Source: a virus
Direction: 5' to 3' (one strand)
Length of the DNA stretch: 64,000 nt
IMG/VR virus record: IMGVR_UViG_3300045988_175656
This document shows, piece by piece, positions 3,135 through 60,829 of the stretch. Below the pieces are notes generated by a model. It had not been told where the DNA came from. It did no database searches and saw only the letters and a program-made list of their open reading frames with translations. The position numbers were made by a program, and so were the translations under genes. Numbering within the stretch: the first letter of the stretch is position 1; each line of letters opens with the position of its first letter.

Positions 3135-3581
3135 ATGGGAATATCAAGAAAACAAATAAAAAAAGCTATTCACAGATTAAGAGTAGATGGTAAAACACCA
3201 CATGATGTAATAGATTTTATTAATAAAAAACTTTGCACAAATAAGGTGGAATTTGAAGAAATACAAAATTGTAGTGAAAATAAAAAACTTTTACCTACAA
3301 GTACCATTTTATCAGATGTTTCAAATTTAAAAGGTATTATGAATGGTGTTACTTTTAATACAGGAAATGGACTTCTTATTAAAAGAACATACAATACGTT
3401 GTGTAATAATTTTAAAAGAATAACTAAGAAACAGTTTCCATTATCATATGAAGAAACTAATGAAGTGATTCAAGCTGTGAAAGATGGAAACAAACTTCAT
3501 GCTGTGAAATTGATAAAAATAAATTCAGGTCTTGGGTTGAGAGAGTCCAAAAATATTTTAGATGCAATGTTTTTTATATAA
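3135..3581 (+). CDS. protein with ribosomal L7/L12 C-terminal-domain-like tail
   Basis: ORF 3102-3581 trimmed to the ATG after the upstream stop. C-terminal AVKLIKINSGLGLRESKNILD resembles the L7/L12 CTD signature VIKxVRxxTGLGLKEAKDLVE. Confidence 0.55.
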   Translation: MGISRKQIKKAIHRLRVDGKTPHDVIDFINKKLCTNKVEFEEIQNCSENKKLLPTSTILSDVSNLKGIMNGVTFNTGNGLLIKRTYNTLCNNFKRITKKQFPLSYEETNEVIQAVKDGNKLHAVKLIKINSGLGLRESKNILDAMFFI

Positions 3582-9510: not shown

Positions 9511-9999
9511 ATGTTAGAAAAATATATTTTTGAAAAAGGCTATACCATTAATGAAAATGGTATGGTATTTAACAATAGTGGAAAAAGAATTGGTCATTTA
9601 AGGCATAAAGCAAATGCACCTTATGAAATTATAAGATTTAGAATTAATGGTAAAATATGTACAGTATATACTCATAGATTACAAGCTTATAAAAAATTTG
9701 GTGAACAAATTTATAATAAAGGAATATTAGTAAGACATTTAGATGGTAATTCGTTAAATAATTCATGGGATAATATTAGTATTGGTACTAATTCTGATAA
9801 TCAAATGGATATTGAAAAAGATAAAAGAATTATTAGGTCATCTAATTCAAATAAAAAATATAGTGATAATATGGTATTTGAAATTTGTGAATATAAGAAA
9901 AAACATACTTATAAAGAAACGATGGAAAAATACAACATAAATAGTAAAGGAACATTACATTTTATTTTAAACAATAGATTATGTCTAAATAATGTCTGA
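9511..9999 (+). CDS. HNH homing endonuclease (HNH_3 type), free-standing between tRNAs
   Basis: Motif VRHLDGNSLNNSWDNISIGTNSDN; paralog of 14162-14650. Confidence 0.8.
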   Translation: MLEKYIFEKGYTINENGMVFNNSGKRIGHLRHKANAPYEIIRFRINGKICTVYTHRLQAYKKFGEQIYNKGILVRHLDGNSLNNSWDNISIGTNSDNQMDIEKDKRIIRSSNSNKKYSDNMVFEICEYKKKHTYKETMEKYNINSKGTLHFILNNRLCLNNV

Positions 10000-10641: not shown

Positions 10642-11065
10642 TTTTAATGTTGTTAAAAAGGTAAAAGAATATCCTTGGTATTATTTTAAAAAGAAAGATG
10701 TTTATCATATTTTTCAAATAAAAGATAATTTTGGTTTTACAAGTATTAATTCAACTAATTTAGGTGATTATTTAATTGAGATTGATAATTCTGAACCTTT
10801 TTATGTAAGAACATATCAAGATATAAAACCTGAATATTCATATAAAGTACTAACAAGAGATAGATGTTATATTGAAGATATTCAATTTTTAGAAAATAGT
10901 CTTGATGAATATCAACTTAGAATATCATGTATTATGTATATTATTACTGATTATAATGAATATGGGAGATGGCATATGAAGTGTTCTTATAGAAAAGAAG
11001 TACCATTTGTCAATGAAATGAAGAAATATATAAAAATAAAATTTCTTGAAAAAGATGATAATTGA
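10628..11065 (+). CDS. hypothetical protein
   Basis: ORF track only. Confidence 0.55.
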   Translation: MKEVNFNVVKKVKEYPWYYFKKKDVYHIFQIKDNFGFTSINSTNLGDYLIEIDNSEPFYVRTYQDIKPEYSYKVLTRDRCYIEDIQFLENSLDEYQLRISCIMYIITDYNEYGRWHMKCSYRKEVPFVNEMKKYIKIKFLEKDDN

Positions 11066-11105
11066 TAACAATTTTTAAGATTAAAAATTTGGCAGATATG
11101 AAAAT

Positions 11106-11124
11106 AAGTCGTATATTTGCAAAG
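11106..11124 (+). promoter_or_regulatory. Bacteroidota-type promoter in front of the split tRNA(CAU)
   Basis: aagtcgtatatttgcaaag consensus copy. Confidence 0.65.
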
Positions 11125-11183
11125 TAAAAAATATAAAAATTGCGAGGGAATGAAACGGATATATAAATCATGCAAGGCTCATA

Positions 11184-11930
11184 CCGAATAATGAAAGAGT
11201 TCATTATTTAAGATGATAAATAGTAATCAAAAAGAAAAACGAACTTTTATATTTATTTTTTAGTATGGTTCGAATAATTATATATAAAAATTGATTTTAT
11301 GAAAAAAGATGATTTGATTAAATATATAATTGATGAAGGTTTATCATATAGGGAAATTGGTAAAATTTATAATGTTAGTGATTCTTATATTAGAAAGATA
11401 GCACAAAAGTTAGGTATTATTCTGCCTAAAAGAAGAAAAATATCTAAAAATGAAACATTTAATAAAAATATTACTTTACTTGATAAAGTAAGTGATGATG
11501 ATTTTGTGGAGATAATATCAAAATCGAATAGTTGGATGGAAATAATCAATAATATAGGATATAAGAATATTGGTTCAAAAGTTAAAAAGAACATTTCAGA
11601 TAGGTGTGAAAAGTTAAATTTGAATCTAAATTTTAGTAAACTAACATTAATTGGATGCATAACAAAAGGTGAATTATTTAGTAATAGAAAAAATTGGCAG
11701 TCAGCTAGGAGTTCTATTCAAAAAATGGCTAGAAATATATTTTTCAAGCATAATAAAAAACCTAAATGTTGTATATGTGGTTATGACAAACATGTAGAAG
11801 TTGCACATATTAAACCAGTATCTGATTTTACTGATGAAACTTTAATTAAAGAAATAAATTCTATTGATAATTTGATTGGGTTATGTCCTAATCATCATTG
11901 GGAATATGATAATGGAATTTTAAAAATATA
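11184..11930 (+). mobile_element. intervening sequence inside tRNA(CAU) carrying an HNH endonuclease ORF
   Basis: Bounded by the two tRNA halves. It starts with a 9-bp hairpin aataatgaa-agag-ttcattatt, and the ORF stop codon abuts the 3' exon. Confidence 0.6.
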
Positions 11931-11931
11931 A
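11299..11931 (+). CDS. HNH endonuclease with N-terminal HTH-like region, encoded inside the tRNA intervening sequence
   Basis: C-terminal CCICGYDKHVEVAHIKPVSD...NLIGLCPNHHWEYD is an HNH motif with a zinc-ribbon-like Cys pair. Confidence 0.8.
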   Translation: MKKDDLIKYIIDEGLSYREIGKIYNVSDSYIRKIAQKLGIILPKRRKISKNETFNKNITLLDKVSDDDFVEIISKSNSWMEIINNIGYKNIGSKVKKNISDRCEKLNLNLNFSKLTLIGCITKGELFSNRKNWQSARSSIQKMARNIFFKHNKKPKCCICGYDKHVEVAHIKPVSDFTDETLIKEINSIDNLIGLCPNHHWEYDNGILKI

Positions 11932-11972
11932 CCTTGTTATAGTAAGTTCGACTCTTACACTCGCAACATAAT

Positions 11973-12046
11973 TGGGGGTTAGGTCAGTGGTTTAGACCGC
12001 CACTTTTACACAGTGGATGTCATTGGTTCGATTCCAATATCCCCAA
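11973..12046 (+). tRNA. tRNA-Val(UAC)
   Basis: Acceptor tgggggt/atcccca, D ggtc/gacc, anticodon stem ccact/agtgg, loop tttacac, T-arm attgg-ttcgatt-ccaat. Confidence 0.9.
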
Positions 12047-12163
12047 CACAGAAAGGTGGTTTGATATAACCTCTAAGACATATTAATTAAGTTTTAAGTT
12101 ATATCTTACACCTATGAAATTTAAAACATTTTTTAACAAAAAAGATTTTGTAGTTTGAAAATA

Positions 12164-12182
12164 ATTACTTATCTTTGCAAAG
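12164..12182 (+). promoter_or_regulatory. Bacteroidota-type promoter
   Basis: attacttatctttgcaaag contains TAtcTTTG; followed by an ORF-free stretch of ~180 nt and then tRNAs. Confidence 0.5.
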
Positions 12183-12366
12183 TGTTTTAAAAACAAATAG
12201 TTCTTTGACATGTTGGAAACCAAAAAATATAATTTTTAAAGACTAAAACAGGAGTTTATAAATTTGCGGAGTATAGATAAAACACATGGAAACATGGAGA
12301 TTTTTGAGACAATGCGCTGTATTTAGTCATAAATTAATACTATGTGTTAATGGTATTAATTTATAT

Positions 12367-13921: not shown

Positions 13922-14063
13922 GGTGTAAATAACATTCATTTTTATGTAAATTCTATTTAAGTGTGCATAGAATAGAAACCTTATATAAATGATGAAAGGG
14001 TTTGATATGGAAGAGTAATTAACTTCAATTTAAGTATCGGTGGTTCGAATCCATCTTACATCA
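13922..14063 (+). tRNA. tRNA-shaped locus with ~65-nt extra interior
   Basis: Acceptor ggtgtaa/ttacatc and T-arm ggtgg-ttcgaat-ccatc. Internal hairpins ttctat...atagaa and aaacc...gggttt. No canonical anticodon loop. Confidence 0.4.
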
Positions 14064-14074
14064 CGAAATTAAAT

Positions 14075-14147
14075 GGGGTTCAAGCTAACTTAGTAGAAGC
14101 GTGGGTCTGAAAAACCCAAGGAGTTGGAGCGTAACCAACGTTCCCCA
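14075..14147 (+). tRNA. tRNA-Phe(GAA) with atypical T-loop and two acceptor mismatches
   Basis: Anticodon stem tgggt/accca, loop ctgaaaa, T-arm gttgg-agcgtaa-ccaac, acceptor ggggttc/gttcccc. Confidence 0.7.
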
Positions 14148-14161
14148 CAAAAATATTAAAT

Positions 14162-14650
14162 ATGAATATAAGAAATGTAGTTGGATATGATAATTATATT
14201 GTCTCAGATAATGGTGAAGTTTTTAATAAAAGGAATATAAATAAGCCATTAAAAACTAGAATAAATAAACATGGTTATAAATATTTAAATTTATCAAAAA
14301 ATGGTATAGTTAAAAGTAAATTGATACATAGAATAGTTGCTGAAGCTTTTTTAAACTATCAAGATGGTGATGTTGTAAATCATAAAGATGGAAATAAATT
14401 AAATAATAATATTGATAATTTAGAATTTTGTACTCAAAAGGATAATGTGAAACATGCTTTTGATAATGGTTTAATGCATCCTATTAATGGTGAAGAATGT
14501 CCTTGGTCTAAATTAACTGATGAAGAAGTGTTGAAAATTAGAAATGAGTACATTCCTTTTATATGTTCTTATAATATGTTAGCTAAAAAATATAATGTAT
14601 CTAAATCTGAAATTATACAAATAGTGAATAACAAAATAAGAAAACTTTAA
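14162..14650 (+). CDS. HNH homing endonuclease (HNH_3 type), free-standing between tRNAs
   Basis: Motif VNHKDGNKLNNNIDNLEFCTQKDN; paralog of 9511-9999. Confidence 0.8.
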   Translation: MNIRNVVGYDNYIVSDNGEVFNKRNINKPLKTRINKHGYKYLNLSKNGIVKSKLIHRIVAEAFLNYQDGDVVNHKDGNKLNNNIDNLEFCTQKDNVKHAFDNGLMHPINGEECPWSKLTDEEVLKIRNEYIPFICSYNMLAKKYNVSKSEIIQIVNNKIRKL

Positions 14651-16909: not shown

Positions 16910-17022
16910 GGGGAAGTAGCTCAATTGGTAGAGCAAATGTTAAAAAAATGTTTTTAGTATTAAAAATGTAGCAATTAAATGAGGAAATCATTGTGTCATT
17001 GGTTCGATTCCAATCTTCCCCG
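16910..17022 (+). tRNA. tRNA-shaped gene carrying a covarying copy of the hairpin/TAGCAA module
   Basis: Acceptor ggggaag/cttcccc, D gctc-aattggta-gagc, T-arm attgg-ttcgatt-ccaat. The stem aatg/catt encloses ~49 nt with ttttta-gtat-taaaaa + tgtagcaattaaat (16951-16980). Confidence 0.55.
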
Positions 17023-32690: not shown

Positions 32691-33641
32691 ATGAATTTTA
32701 AATGGAATAAAGAGAAATGTTTAGAATATGCAAAAAAATGCACAACAAAAATGGAATTTAGAACAAAATTTCCCAAAGCTTATAGTGCATGTTGGAGATA
32801 TAAATGGTTTGATGAAATTACATGGTTTGAGCCAACAAATTATTCAATTAATTATTCTTGTAAAGAATATGTAATATATTCCTATGAAATTTCAATTTTG
32901 AAATCAGTATATGTTGGTTTGACTAAAAATATTAAAAGACGAGATAAACAACATAGAAATGGGTCAAAACATAGTAATGGTACTATAAATTATAGTAGTT
33001 TATATACTTTTTGTTACATGAATAAAGTATCAATACCTGTATATAAAATTTTAAATAATAATTTAGATTGTAAGCAGTGCCAAGTTCTTGAAAAAGAATG
33101 GATTGATTATTATAAAAGTAATGGGTGGAATATTATTAATATAGCTCCAACTGGTTTAAATGTTAGTTCTATTGGCTCTATTCCTAAATGGAATTATGAT
33201 ATGTGTTATGAAGAAGCTAAAAAATATAACTCAAAAACAAATTTTAAACATAATTCAAGTGGGGCTTATGCAAGTGCATGTAAAAATGGGTGGATTAATG
33301 ATTATATATGGTTATCCAAAAATTTAAATAATAATACGCATAAAAAAAATTATTGGAATTACGAAACTTGTTTTGAAGAAGCTAAAAAATATAATTCTAA
33401 AAAAGAGTTTGAACAAAAATCAGAAACTTCGTTTAAAGTTGCAGTAAAAAATAAGTGGCTTAATGATTATACATGGTTTGTGAATCCTAAAAAAAATAGA
33501 AATTATTGGAATTATGAAACTTGTTTTGAAGCTTCAAAACAATGTAAAAATAAGAAAGAATTTTCTATTAAATATAATAGGGCATATAAATTAAGTTTAC
33601 AAAATAAATGGTTAAATAAATTTTTTAATGAAAGTAGATAG
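32691..33641 (+). CDS. GIY-YIG nuclease with four ~45-aa flanking repeats
   Basis: GIY-YIG core YVIYSYEISILKSVYVGLTKNIKRRDKQH. Repeated modules of the type W(N)YE(T/M)C(F/Y)EEAKKYNSK.EF......KN.W(L/I)NDY.W. Confidence 0.7.
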   Translation: MNFKWNKEKCLEYAKKCTTKMEFRTKFPKAYSACWRYKWFDEITWFEPTNYSINYSCKEYVIYSYEISILKSVYVGLTKNIKRRDKQHRNGSKHSNGTINYSSLYTFCYMNKVSIPVYKILNNNLDCKQCQVLEKEWIDYYKSNGWNIINIAPTGLNVSSIGSIPKWNYDMCYEEAKKYNSKTNFKHNSSGAYASACKNGWINDYIWLSKNLNNNTHKKNYWNYETCFEEAKKYNSKKEFEQKSETSFKVAVKNKWLNDYTWFVNPKKNRNYWNYETCFEASKQCKNKKEFSIKYNRAYKLSLQNKWLNKFFNESR

Positions 33642-40219: not shown

Positions 40220-42142
40220 ATGAAAAGAATTTTAGGTATTGATTTAGGCTCTACAAACTCAGCAGTGAGTGTGATTGAGAGTGGAAAAGCAATAATTGTA
40301 GTTAATGAGGAAGGTAGAAGAACTACCCCATCTGTGATTGCATTAAAGAATGGGGAAAGAAAAGTTGGAGAAGCTGCAAAAAGACAACGTGTTGTTAATC
40401 CTAAAGAAACTGTATCAATAATTAAAAGATTTATGGGGGCTGATTTTAATTCTTCTGAATGTCAAGAAGCTATTAAAAAAGTACCTTATGAAATTATTAA
40501 TAAGGATGGTAAAGCAAGAGTTCTAATTGAAAACAGAGAATATTCTCCTGAAGAATTATCTTCTTATATCATTTCTAAACTTAAAAAATGTGCCGAAGAT
40601 TATGTAGGTGGGGAAATTAAAGATGCTGTTATTACAGTTCCAGCATATTTTAATGATTCACAACGTACAGCAACTAAAGTCGCAGGTGAACTAGCTGGTT
40701 TGAATGTGTTAAGAATTATTAATGAACCAACAGCAGCTATTCTTTCTTCTGATATTGATATTAAACATGGTGAGAAAAATATTATGGTGTGTGACTTTGG
40801 TGGTGCAACAACTGATTTTTCTGTATGTAATTTGTCAGAAGGATTAACAGAAGTATTATCAACTTATGGTGATGTATTCCTAGGTGGTAGTGATATTGAT
40901 AATGCTATTGCAGAATGGATTATAAGCTCATTTAATGAAGAAAATGGTGTGGATTTAAAGAGTGATGCCCAAGCATTACAACGTGTCGTAGAAGCGGCTG
41001 AAACTGCTAAAATAGAGCTATCATCTTCTAGTTCTGCTGAAATTAATTTGCCTTATATTTGTAGTAAAGATAATACACCATTACATTTACAATATACATT
41101 AACAAGAGCTAAGTTTAATCAATTAACACAACCATTGATTGATAAACTGATTAAATGTGGTAAAGAGTCTTTGAAAAAAGCAAATCTTAAAGCAAATGAA
41201 CTTAATGGTATTTTGCTTGTTGGTGGGTCTTGTCGTTGTTTGAATGTACAAGATGCTTTAACCAAAGAATTTGGTGTAGAACTATTGAAATCAGCTAATT
41301 TGGATGAAGCTGTTTCATTAGGTGCAGCTATTCAAGCTAATATTATAGTTGGTGGAGAAGGAAGTTCTGATATGGTATTACTTGATGTAACTCCACTTTC
41401 AATGGGTATTGAAACAATGGGTAATGTGATGACAAAACTTATTGATGCAAATACAACAATTCCATGCAAAAAAAGCCAAATTTTCACAACTGCTGTGGAT
41501 AATCAGCCATCTGTTGATATTCATGTATTACAAGGTGAAAGACCAATGGCTAAAGATAATAAAACAATTGGTATGTTCCAATTAACTGATATTTTACCAG
41601 CAAGACGTGGTGTGCCACAAATTGAAGTAACATTTGATATTGATGCTAATGGTATTTTGAATGTTTCTGCAAAAGATAAAGGTACAGGAAAAGAACAGTC
41701 AATTAGAATTGAAGCAAGTAATGGTCTTTCTGATGCTGAAATTGAAAAAATCAAGCAAGAAGCAAAAGAACATGAAGCAGCAGATAAGAAATTGAAAGAA
41801 GAAGCTGATATAATTAATAATGGAGATGCTATGGTTTTTCAAACTGAAAAACAGATTGAAGAATATGGTGATAAAATTTCTTCAGATAGTAAGAAATCTT
41901 TAGAAGAACTAATTGAAAAGTTAAAAAATTCTTTAAAAGATAGAAATATATCTGATATTAAAGAAAACACTGATAAAATCACATCACAATGGCAAAAAAT
42001 TACTTCTGAAATGTATGCAACAGGTACTAATGGTGGTACATCTAATTTTGAAGATATTTTAAGAGGTGCAGCAAATGGTAATACAAAAACAGATACCAAA
42101 GAAGATAATGTAACTGATGCTGATTTTGAAGAAGTTAAATAA
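40220..42142 (+). CDS. dnaK: Hsp70 chaperone DnaK
   Basis: [19 protein letters not shown] and [14 protein letters not shown] signatures; 640 aa. Confidence 0.95.
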
Positions 42143-59497: not shown

Positions 59498-59623
59498 AGT
59501 TTAAAAACAATCCATTATAAATAGTGTGAATGGTATTGTGATGTAATTTATTCTATTTTATAGAAAGCGTAAAATAGAATAACTTTAGCGAAGTTTAGAA
59601 CATTGATAAAAACAAAAATATTT

Positions 59624-60829
59624 ATGAAACTATTAGAGAAAATTATAAATCAAGAAACTTATATGGTTAATTGGGATGAAGTGGCAAAAATACCAGAATT
59701 TGGCGTTTTAAAAAAAACTGAACAGAATCCTAAATGGCATTCAGAAGGAAATGTATGGAATCATACAGTAAATGTGGTAAATGAAATGTATAAATTAGTA
59801 CCATATAACGAATCAGATAAAATATTCTCTGATATGAGACATCAAAGACGTTTAGTTATGGTTGCTGCTGCTTTGTTTCATGATATAGGCAAAGGTGCTA
59901 CAACCAAATGGTCAGATGAAAAGGGTTCATGGACTTCTCCACGTCATGCGCCTGTTGGTGAACAAATCACACGTAGATTGTTATGGGATGAAGATTTTTT
60001 TGTTAGAGAAAAAATATGCTCTTTGGTTAGAAACCATATGAAACCGTTATATATTTATGATTCTGAAACTCCTGTTCGTGATGTAATATTTTTAGCTGAA
60101 GAGCCTATATCTTTTAACAATTTAATTACGTTAAAAATTGCTGATTGTTTAGGCGCAATTCAAACTGAAGAAGATGGATGGAGAGATAAATTAGAATATG
60201 CAAAAGAAATAGCCCAAGACTATAAATGTTTAGAAAATCCTTATAAGTTTTCTAATGAATATAGTCGTTTTGAATTTTTCCATAATCAAAAAATGGAATA
60301 TCCTGTGGATTTGTATAATCCATCTAATGTAGGTAATTTTACAGTATATTTTATGATTGGATTACCTGGTTCAGGCAAAGATACATATATTAAAAACCAT
60401 TTGTCTAATATTCCAACTGTTTGTAGAGACGAAATTCGCACTGAAATTGGTATTAAAGGTGAAAAGCCAATGGGCAATAAAAAGCAAGAAGATGAAGTTA
60501 CTCGTATTCAAAATGAAAGAATTTTGGAATATGCAAGAAAACATCAATCTTTCATTATCAATGCAACTAATTTAAAAAGAATGTATCGTGATGGGTTTAA
60601 ATCAATGTTAGCTCCATACAATGCTCGTATCGAATATGTGTATGTAGAAGCACCTGATTTTAACAAAACACTTGAAAGAAGAAAAGGTACAATACCACAA
60701 GATGTTATTAAAAGAATGAGAGAATATTTTGAATTTCCACGTCCAAATGAAGCTTATGCAATAAGAATTGATGTACAAAGAAATTCAATTTATGGTAAAA
60801 CAACTGATTATGAAGGAAAAGACAAATGA
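59624..60829 (+). CDS. HD phosphohydrolase fused to P-loop polynucleotide-kinase-like domain (RNA end-healing enzyme)
   Basis: ORF trimmed to its first ATG. HD part NPKWHSEGNVWNHT ... AALFHDIGK (like the CCA-enzyme HD domain). Kinase part with Walker A GLPGSGKDT. Confidence 0.75.
   Translation: MKLLEKIINQETYMVNWDEVAKIPEFGVLKKTEQNPKWHSEGNVWNHTVNVVNEMYKLVPYNESDKIFSDMRHQRRLVMVAAALFHDIGKGATTKWSDEKGSWTSPRHAPVGEQITRRLLWDEDFFVREKICSLVRNHMKPLYIYDSETPVRDVIFLAEEPISFNNLITLKIADCLGAIQTEEDGWRDKLEYAKEIAQDYKCLENPYKFSNEYSRFEFFHNQKMEYPVDLYNPSNVGNFTVYFMIGLPGSGKDTYIKNHLSNIPTVCRDEIRTEIGIKGEKPMGNKKQEDEVTRIQNERILEYARKHQSFIINATNLKRMYRDGFKSMLAPYNARIEYVYVEAPDFNKTLERRKGTIPQDVIKRMREYFEFPRPNEAYAIRIDVQRNSIYGKTTDYEGKDK

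Follow-up and report, generated by a model that had tools for sequence, protein, structure and literature searches.

The 64,000-nucleotide (nt) stretch of DNA analysed here (the window; IMG/VR virus record IMGVR_UViG_3300045988_175656) carries a phage tRNA(CAU) gene that is split by a 747-nt intervening sequence encoding an HNH endonuclease. This insert is very probably a mobile homing-endonuclease cassette, consisting of a leader of ~100 nt with two hairpins and the HNH gene, which resides between C34 and A35 of the tRNA. Sequence comparison assigns the cassette to a large HNH family whose members, in phages of gut and rumen, either interrupt a tRNA(CAU) gene or adjoin one directly. With only a little more doubt than confidence we propose that the element marks a new kind of mobile phage tRNA intron, i.e. 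one that has no group I or group II ribozyme, lies inside the anticodon (34/35), carries its own homing endonuclease, and would be removed either by protein cutting followed by healing and sealing or by an undescribed ribozyme in the leader.

The split tRNA(CAU) gene and its break site

The 5' exon (11141-11180, plus strand) comprises positions 1-34 of the tRNA, with the acceptor strand TGCGAGG, a D arm with a 14-nt loop, the anticodon stem strand CAAGG, and C32, U33, and C34. The 3' exon (11928-11966, plus strand) comprises positions 35-73, with A35, U36, A37, and A38 being followed by the stem strand CCTTG, the variable loop TTATA, the T arm GTAAG-TTCGACT-CTTAC, the acceptor strand ACTCGCA, and the discriminator A. 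With the ATA that stands on both sides given in brackets, the 5' piece reads TGCGAGGGAATGAAACGGATATATAAATCATGCAAGGCTC(ATA) and the 3' piece (ATA)ACCTTGTTATAGTAAGTTCGACTCTTACACTCGCAA. The intervening sequence (11181-11927, plus strand) consists of a 118-nt leader and the HNH open reading frame (ORF), beginning with ATAC and ending with AAT, and a tRNA-Val gene begins 6 nt 3' of the 3' piece. An earlier note, made from the letters of this DNA, had listed the two pieces, the 747 nt, a 9-bp hairpin, the ORF, and a promoter-like motif, and all of these are present.

A scan for the joined anticodon arm identified the exact joined 79-nt sequence, uninterrupted and in the same gene neighbourhood as in the window, in the IMG/VR contigs L004 and L005, and a third uninterrupted version with three different bases in contig L258. 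The flanks of L004 and the window are identical at 397/400 and 394/400 positions and the exons are identical throughout, the 747 nt being simply absent from L004. The two tRNA halves thus belong to a single gene, and the insert is a distinct unit with exact ends, which bears out the earlier claim of a tRNA(CAU) gene split by an HNH-encoding sequence. The same note had suggested a comparison with intron-less homologues, which was carried out and gave the intact alleles L004 and L005, an insertion site at C34|A35, and a presence/absence polymorphism.

ARAGORN called neither the joined nor the intact tRNA and returned nothing for the window with its intron option, and the Rfam tRNA model scores the tRNA at 24.9 bits against a threshold of 29. 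We attribute these misses to the 14-nt D loop and a G7-A66 mismatch rather than to the absence of a tRNA. The missing calls at default thresholds would fit an assembly artefact or a chance resemblance of two halves that are not one gene; this explanation is refuted by the exact joined sequence in L004 and L005, by the recurrence of the insert at this site in L140 (99.9% identity) and L006 (84% identity), which were assembled independently, and by the same junction in 25 distinct homologous inserts.

Intact members of this tRNA class, 29 distinct versions in all, are present on 46 IMG/VR contigs. Many compensatory changes are seen in their acceptor, anticodon, and T stems, whereas the D arm (TGAAACGGATATAYARATCAY) hardly varies, and they have CTCATAA as anticodon loop and TTCGACT as T loop. 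The 14-nt D loop that characterizes this phage tRNA(CAU) class (AACGGATATAYARA) is nearly invariant, and the class is missed by standard tRNA finders. Its loci comprise L220-L263, L004, L005, L091, and L172 of IMG/VR, many of them on contigs of ~95-100 kb, a crAss-like size. No second copy of this class was found within the window.

The earlier note had placed the break at the 37/38 site of archaeal and eukaryal introns. The window by itself allows four placements of the junction, from 34/35 to 37/38, ATA being present on both sides (CTC ATA CCG ... AAT ATA ACC). For comparison, 25 distinct inserts homologous to that of the window were gathered from IMG/VR, JGI/ENA metagenomes, and Logan contigs, with 24 of them having a length of 739-781 nt and one being truncated to 693 nt. 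All 25 conform to the pattern stem-CTC | WYAM...(W)T | ATAA-stem. In four lineages (L007/L142, L023, L146) the insert starts with TTA and in one (L024) with ACA, the 3' side always being ATAA. The tRNA bodies of these lineages are those of ordinary initiator-like tRNA(CAU), and their CAU anticodon is restored only by a C34|A35 junction. Moreover, uninterrupted IMG/VR tRNAs with the anticodon arm of L023 carry CAT in 107/107 cases and CTT in none. The TTA and ACA starts together with these 107 relatives indicate that the first three bases of the insert are intronic and that the gene is broken at C34|A35, i.e. inside the anticodon, between its first and second bases, and not at 37/38. Upon C34|A35 joining ARAGORN recognizes a tRNA-Met(cat) at 19 of the 25 loci, the other six being five genes with an odd D arm and one 5'-truncated locus. 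The detection rule for inserts initially required ATAA, and a relaxed scan added only L152 and the aberrant L197.

A transposon-like target-site duplication was considered for the flanking ATA...ATA and rejected, as the left triplet moves with the element (TTA in L007 and in L142, which are different tRNAs). We also discarded the variable left triplet and invariant right ATAA as a sign of function, since recipient-derived exons predict the same pattern. A search for an intact allele of the L007 tRNA found none. The intronic 5' ATA lengthens the identity with the target to GGCTCATA, which may be the reason why most copies retain it.

The mobile HNH cassette and its leader

Mobility is evident from the loci L007 and L142. 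Their inserts share 98.7% identity, with two substitutions and an indel of 8 nt, as compared to only 69% for the exons, and exon differences are found within 5 nt of both junctions, demonstrating that the element moves from one tRNA(CAU) gene to a different one with precise ends and hardly any co-conversion. For the tRNA that is interrupted in L009, intact alleles are present in more than 10 other contigs, including L224 and L235. Relatives were found at 159 phage and metagenome loci, with 34 located inside a tRNA(CAU) gene, 68 having a tRNA(CAU) within 300 nt, and 30 having another tRNA nearby. In the 68 neighbour cases the tRNA(CAU) typically lies directly 3' of the ORF (e.g. L030, L040, L050, L051, L058). 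At L032 (~1380-2200) a tRNA(CAU) 5' half ending in CTC is followed by an HNH cassette whose leader (GGTTCGAATAATTCG) represents a third type, and then by a complete, different tRNA(CAU), and L030 contains the same cassette without the 5' half. This arrangement could be an intermediate between the free-standing and the in-tRNA states.

The ORF (11299-11931, plus strand) encodes a homing endonuclease of 210 amino acids that matches Pfam HNH_2 (E=1e-10) and PHROG HNH families. The protein has a helix-turn-helix region at its N-terminus and a zinc-type CxxC...H-N-H motif at its C-terminus. Across 33 homologues C157, C160, H165, N191, N198, and H200 do not vary, and C196 and H199 hardly do; in total, 809 homologues were detected at E<=1e-3. 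The stop codon TAA (11929-11931) coincides with U36-A37-A38 of the 3' exon. Comparison of the endonuclease copies of the window and L006 gave a ratio of nonsynonymous to synonymous substitution rates (dN/dS) of 0.15 at a dS of 0.7, a signature of purifying selection. The L006 copy (L006 3001-3672) carries LYPNHH in place of the LCPNHH of other homologues. With a zinc-ligand Cys being replaced it may no longer home, and it may thus be a decaying endonuclease in an insert with intact exons.

Nucleotide and protein searches of cultured-phage records gave unrelated tRNA matches and distant HNH fragments and no annotated relative, and in a PDB sequence search the best matches, to an unrelated chain (E ~0.002) and to the TagI HNH domain (E of 0.05), were not informative. 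The HNH ORFs of L029, L031, L072, and L050 have an in-frame TGA at the conserved Trp of HHWEYD, which suggests that TGA is recoded to Trp in these phages. At L054 a GOLLD RNA (2526-2998; 176 bits, above threshold) is located ~430 nt 3' of a distant HNH relative and directly 5' of a tRNA.

The non-coding leader has a length of 37-118 nt among the homologues, 118 nt being that of the window. In the window hairpin 1 (11187-11208, plus strand), the 9-bp hairpin listed above, starts 6 nt past the 5' junction and is formed by AATAATGAA and TTCATTATT with the loop AGAG. A hairpin occurs at this place in all homologues with differing sequences that include G-U pairs. It is followed by the single-stranded box TAAGATGA (11209-11216, plus strand) and by hairpin 2 (11240-11272, plus strand), whose base helix CGAAC...GTTCG is nearly invariant and whose 3' strand GGTTCGAAT is T-loop-like. 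This is a type-A leader, which is also carried by L006, L007, L142, L009, L143, and L029/L031 and reads WTAMCG, sequence-variable hairpin, TAAGAYGR (in every type-A leader), CGAAC-loop-GTTCG. The type-B leader, represented by 13 sequences in an alignment (A2), consists of WYAC, a hairpin CRGU...ACYG, GAAAnAUAUU, and CGAAC...GUUCG-UUUUU, with TATTTAT ~17 nt further 3' and then the ATG. In A2 both helices are 100% paired, with exchanges of A-U/G-C and U-A/U-G/G-U in hairpin 1 and of C-G/U-G in hairpin 2, and the G-U pairs indicate that the leader structure acts as RNA. The box YGAAC...GTTCG is carried by 23 of the 24 distinct in-tRNA elements, in 2 of 92 distinct free-standing relatives, and in 3.7% of background windows; the difference between in-tRNA and free-standing elements may be due in part to common descent of the former. 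The idea that the leader box UCGAAC pairs with the 3'-exon T loop was discarded, as no covariation was seen (L145, L027, L148).

Known intron classes and the fate of the RNA

The earlier description of an insert without group I or group II hallmarks stood up to model searches. The last exon base is C34 in 25/25 inserts and not the U of group I introns, no internal guide sequence is conserved, and the last base of the insert is T, or A in L028 and L157, and never G (omega-G), with the nearest G in the window being located 19 nt upstream. The Rfam Intron_gpI model found no core at E<=10 in the region 10900-12200 of the window and none at E<=1 at 13 homologous loci. In the same E-value mode it detected the positive control L096 despite an ORF insertion of 470 nt, with a score of 42.9 bits and an E-value of 1.8e-9, rendering the negative result informative. 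As to group II introns, the insert starts with AUAC and not with GUGYG, its non-coding part is limited to 118 nt, its ORF encodes an HNH nuclease, and there was no Rfam group II match.

L096 is one of a series of loci from bacterial genomes (L096-L135, e.g. L096 1117-1870, minus strand) at which canonical IC3 group I introns with a length of 640-714 nt interrupt tRNA-Arg(CCU)/(UCU) genes in cyanobacteria, Chloroflexi/Anaerolineales, and Bacteroidota; these introns are missed at the Rfam gathering threshold (42.9 vs 50 bits). They are inserted after U36, end with G, and carry the boxes GTAGAGACTA and AAGGTATAGTCC, and a genome scan revealed an HNH ORF on their antisense strand that belongs to the same C-terminal family as the phage HNH protein.

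The location of these relatives inside genuine group I introns, and the fact that bacterial tRNA anticodon loops, including that of tRNA(CAU), are known to hold such introns, would be in line with a cryptic or degenerate group I intron whose core overlaps the ORF and which self-splices conventionally. This is very improbable in view of the bases at both junctions, a non-coding part of only 37-118 nt, an ORF without strong excess of synonymous conservation, a site at 34/35 as compared to 36/37 for the IC3 introns, and the Intron_gpI search with its positive control.

Likeness to the archaeal and eukaryal type of intron, which the earlier note had seen in the break site, found no support in the RNA either. 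In a position-anchored scan of 21 inserts for a bulge-helix-bulge, in which the 5' junction region was compared with the last 70 nt, the anticodon stem was the only conserved helix. By these analyses the element belongs to none of the three intron classes, i.e. group I, group II, and bulge-helix-bulge. Small self-cleaving ribozymes (hammerhead, hepatitis delta virus (HDV)-like, twister, hatchet, pistol) had no Rfam match at E<=10 in the window and at E<=1 at the 13 loci. Inspection by eye of both leader types against the consensus structures also led us to dismiss a hammerhead, whose G8 is replaced by A in the CUGANGA-like box, and an HDV-like fold, the topology being wrong.

We propose that the endonuclease would cut uninterrupted tRNA(CAU) genes during co-infection and that repair would then copy the cassette in, as the behaviour of the family suggests, the brief matches at the junctions, GGCTC(ATA) and ATAACC, being sufficient for precise insertion. 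The precursor RNA would be transcribed from the tRNA promoter and adopt the usual cloverleaf fold, from whose anticodon loop the 747 nt would protrude as a large loop. The insert might then be removed by a non-canonical route, i.e. other than classical self-splicing; judged on sequence, we consider the case for such a removal to be evenly balanced.

Of the two conceivable routes, the likelier one, which we nevertheless put forward only tentatively, is protein-dependent: endonucleolytic cuts beside the intact anticodon stem would be followed by healing and sealing by phage RNA-repair enzymes. The window encodes an ATP-dependent RNA ligase (50618-52177, plus strand; phrog_968, PF09414, and PF21189) and a protein combining an HD phosphoesterase with a P-loop polynucleotide-kinase-like domain (59603-60829, plus strand; phrog_505, PF01966, and PF13671), in agreement with the earlier note, and the two are candidates only for the putative sealing and end-healing enzymes, respectively, of the split tRNA. 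The other route, a small unrecognized ribozyme in the conserved leader, appears unlikely.

Several features hint that the tRNA still matters. The exons of the window and L006 are identical at 79/79 positions, with the inserts differing by 16% (dS of 0.7) and the flanks by 11%; the split gene is the sole copy of its class in the window; the leader covaries and is specific for in-tRNA elements; the ORF is flush with the exon; short inserts in two other tRNAs of the window are retained by related contigs; and the RNA ligase and HD-kinase are encoded nearby.

Alternatively, the cassette may be a selfish insertion without splicing, which breaks an accessory, partly redundant tRNA and is maintained by super-Mendelian inheritance in co-infection. 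The perfect exons would then reflect recent invasion of intact genes, and the leader hairpins would regulate endonuclease expression and not splicing. We regard this as a serious possibility, though on balance a doubtful one. A number of results favour it and weigh against removal of the insert from the RNA. No conserved junction-to-junction pairing besides the anticodon stem and no P1/P10-like guide was detected in the 21 inserts, and no catalyst was identified, the Rfam searches showing no ribozyme and no splicing endonuclease (EndA/Sen) being recognized among the 40 ORFs of the 64-kb window that were scanned against Pfam. The synonymous-site scan of the ORF was flat (mean 0.56) with mild rises to ~0.7 at both ends and gave no convincing embedded RNA element. 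Self-sufficient introns usually leave ORF-less derivatives, and degenerate pattern scans for ORF-less inserts with this leader, which returned mostly chance matches, yielded none after filtering, only ORF-bearing inserts of 739-781 nt. Relatives also reside in decayed or rearranged tRNA halves (L038, L089, L090, L197, and L032 with its 5' half, cassette, and complete tRNA). Conservation of the exons could also result from repeated homing into intact alleles with very short co-conversion, and all arguments from it are weakened by the L007/L142 pair, which demonstrates that exons can always come fresh from the recipient. As the window contains three other tRNA(CAU) genes, loss of the split one may be tolerable, and phage tRNA genes are generally dispensable in the laboratory. 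Finally, type-B hairpin 2, the U run, and GTTCG-N16/17-TATTTAT just 5' of the ATG resemble expression signals.

Other observations weigh against a purely selfish insertion. One exact in-gene site has been kept while the protein diverged to ~50% identity, which would be unusual unless the insertion is neutralized. The exons of the window and L006 remained identical over a dS of 0.7 in two insert-bearing lineages, one with an endonuclease that may no longer home, and the two-hairpin leader is a property of in-tRNA copies (23/24) rather than of free-standing relatives (2/92). In most copies the ORF ends exactly at the exon, a compaction for which a dead gene would not be expected to select, and short ORF-less inserts of other tRNAs in the same phage are retained in related contigs.

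Genomic setting and comparison with other tRNA interruptions

The window is AT-rich phage DNA (27% GC) with dense coding and more than 30 tRNA genes across 2.7-20 kb. Its DnaK-like protein (40220-42139) is ~50% identical to homologues of Lak megaphages and other uncultured phages of >540 kb, and from this identity and the GC content the phage is assigned to the group of the Lak megaphages. The host is bacterial, the phage being of the Prevotella type, and the genome behind the 64-kb window probably exceeds 200 kb.

The promoter-like motif TATATTTGCAAAG (11112-11124, plus strand) contains a Bacteroidetes-type TAnnTTTG -7 box and ends 16 nt 5' of the tRNA start. It occurs 18 times in the window as compared to 4.7 expected matches, mostly 5' of plus-strand genes, and a sigma-70-like TTGGCA-17-TATATT is located at 11089-11117. 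Scanning the insert (11181-11927) for TATATTTGCAAAG with one mismatch allowed gave no copy, so that the HNH ORF and the tRNA probably share a transcript.

A Ro60-like protein (DUF2828 and VWA) is encoded at 48199-49851, with the RNA ligase and the HD/P-loop kinase lying within ~12 kb, and at the related phage locus L031 a sub-threshold Y-RNA-like (YrlA) match (3157-3264; 36 bits, E=2e-4) is located inside the tRNA array. The window has three more homing-endonuclease-like ORFs (9511-9999, 14162-14650, and 32691-33641), namely two free-standing HNH_3 genes between tRNA genes, one of them with a NUMOD4 motif, and one GIY-YIG protein. At 13991-14063, directly 5' of a tRNA-Phe(GAA) at 14075, Rfam finds a tRNA (37 bits) that is absent from the ARAGORN output.

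Two other tRNA genes of the window contain short ORF-less inserts. A tRNA(GAA)-like gene (16910-17022; 52 bits with the Rfam tRNA model and missed by ARAGORN) has an insert of ~42 nt with the hairpin AUGUUUUUA-GUAU-UAAAAAUGU, which is kept with small changes in the 11%-diverged L005/L258 lineage. As the 3' end of the L005/L258 homologue forms a complete canonical anticodon arm (AAATG-ATGAAGT-CATTG), the extra piece may lie between the D arm and the anticodon arm and not in the loop. The second tRNA (2680-2799) has an insert of ~46 nt with the hairpin UUUUUCA-GUAUU-UGAAAAA, which is identical in the near-identical L004. A UUUUU(C)AGUAU motif is common to both inserts and the HNH leader (~11255-11267).

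The tRNA introns of Lak megaphages were called "enigmatic" and left unclassified by Devoto et al. 2019 (PMC6784885). There they are named for tRNA Phe, Gly, Thr, and Tyr and appear to be short and ORF-less, one example having 93 nt (PMC6784885). The element of the window and the Lak introns as presented there share the phage group and are tRNA interruptions that Rfam does not classify and whose presence varies among related genomes, and the two short inserts of the window add to this likeness. Compared to that account, the element differs in having 747 nt with an active-looking endonuclease, in residing at 34/35 of a tRNA(CAU), and in being demonstrably mobile between different tRNA genes. It is thus a homing-endonuclease element in a tRNA gene that extends the Lak introns by a large, coding, mobile member.

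Archaeal and eukaryal tRNA introns are recognized through a bulge-helix-bulge and processed by EndA/Sen and RtcB or Trl1, and Nanoarchaeum has split tRNA genes. The element resembles them in interrupting the anticodon loop without a ribozyme and in the presence of an end-healing kinase/phosphoesterase and an RNA ligase in the same genome, but it has no bulge-helix-bulge, is located at 34/35 instead of 37/38, has a bacterial host and no EndA recognized among the scanned ORFs of the window, and is a 747-nt insert with an ORF.

Group I introns are found in cyanobacterial tRNA-fMet(CAU), where they encode I-Ssp6803I, in Azoarcus tRNA-Ile(CAU), and in Agrobacterium tRNA-Arg(CCU) (reference list of PMC3984707). 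With these the element shares mobility, the anticodon loop, an encoded endonuclease, in part even a CAU tRNA, and polymorphism at one exact site, and its C-terminal HNH domain is homologous to that of the bacterial tRNA-Arg introns. Unlike them, it has no core, no U at position -1, and no terminal G, lies at 34/35 and not 36/37, has a sense ORF that reaches the 3' junction and only ~100 nt of non-coding sequence, and resides in a phage. According to a 2014 review every phage intron then known was located in a protein-coding gene (PMC3984707).

Endonuclease genes of the mobE/SegB type likewise lack a self-splicing intron, lie in or beside their target gene, and are inherited preferentially in co-infection, and many relatives found here are free-standing and directly beside an intact tRNA(CAU). 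T4-like phages have such free-standing endonuclease genes, with mobE splitting nrdA in Aeromonas phage Aeh1 and SegB being located in the T4 tRNA cluster. However, a split protein gene can work as two polypeptides, whereas a tRNA cut in the anticodon has to be rejoined to decode. We know of no tRNA gene that is split by an intron-less endonuclease gene. SegB also appears in PMC13096335.

If the element does mark a new kind of tRNA intron, no earlier case would exist in a bacterial system of tRNA splicing that depends on proteins or on a new ribozyme, and the element would probably also explain the short "enigmatic" tRNA introns of Lak megaphages. In-gene homing-endonuclease genes are thought to survive only on a self-splicing intron or an intein that makes the insertion harmless, and here a family keeps one exact anticodon site, with the protein diverged to ~50% identity and no ribozyme detectable. 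With a short element, defined boundaries, and intron-less alleles in hand, the question is directly testable. If the tRNA is restored, bacterial viruses possess a way of splicing tRNA other than self-splicing, and phage RNA ligase/kinase systems, so far seen only as repair against anticodon nucleases, gain a second role. If it is not restored, the endonuclease gene persists by drive alone and costs a host gene. Either outcome bears on the tRNA introns of the Lak megaphages.

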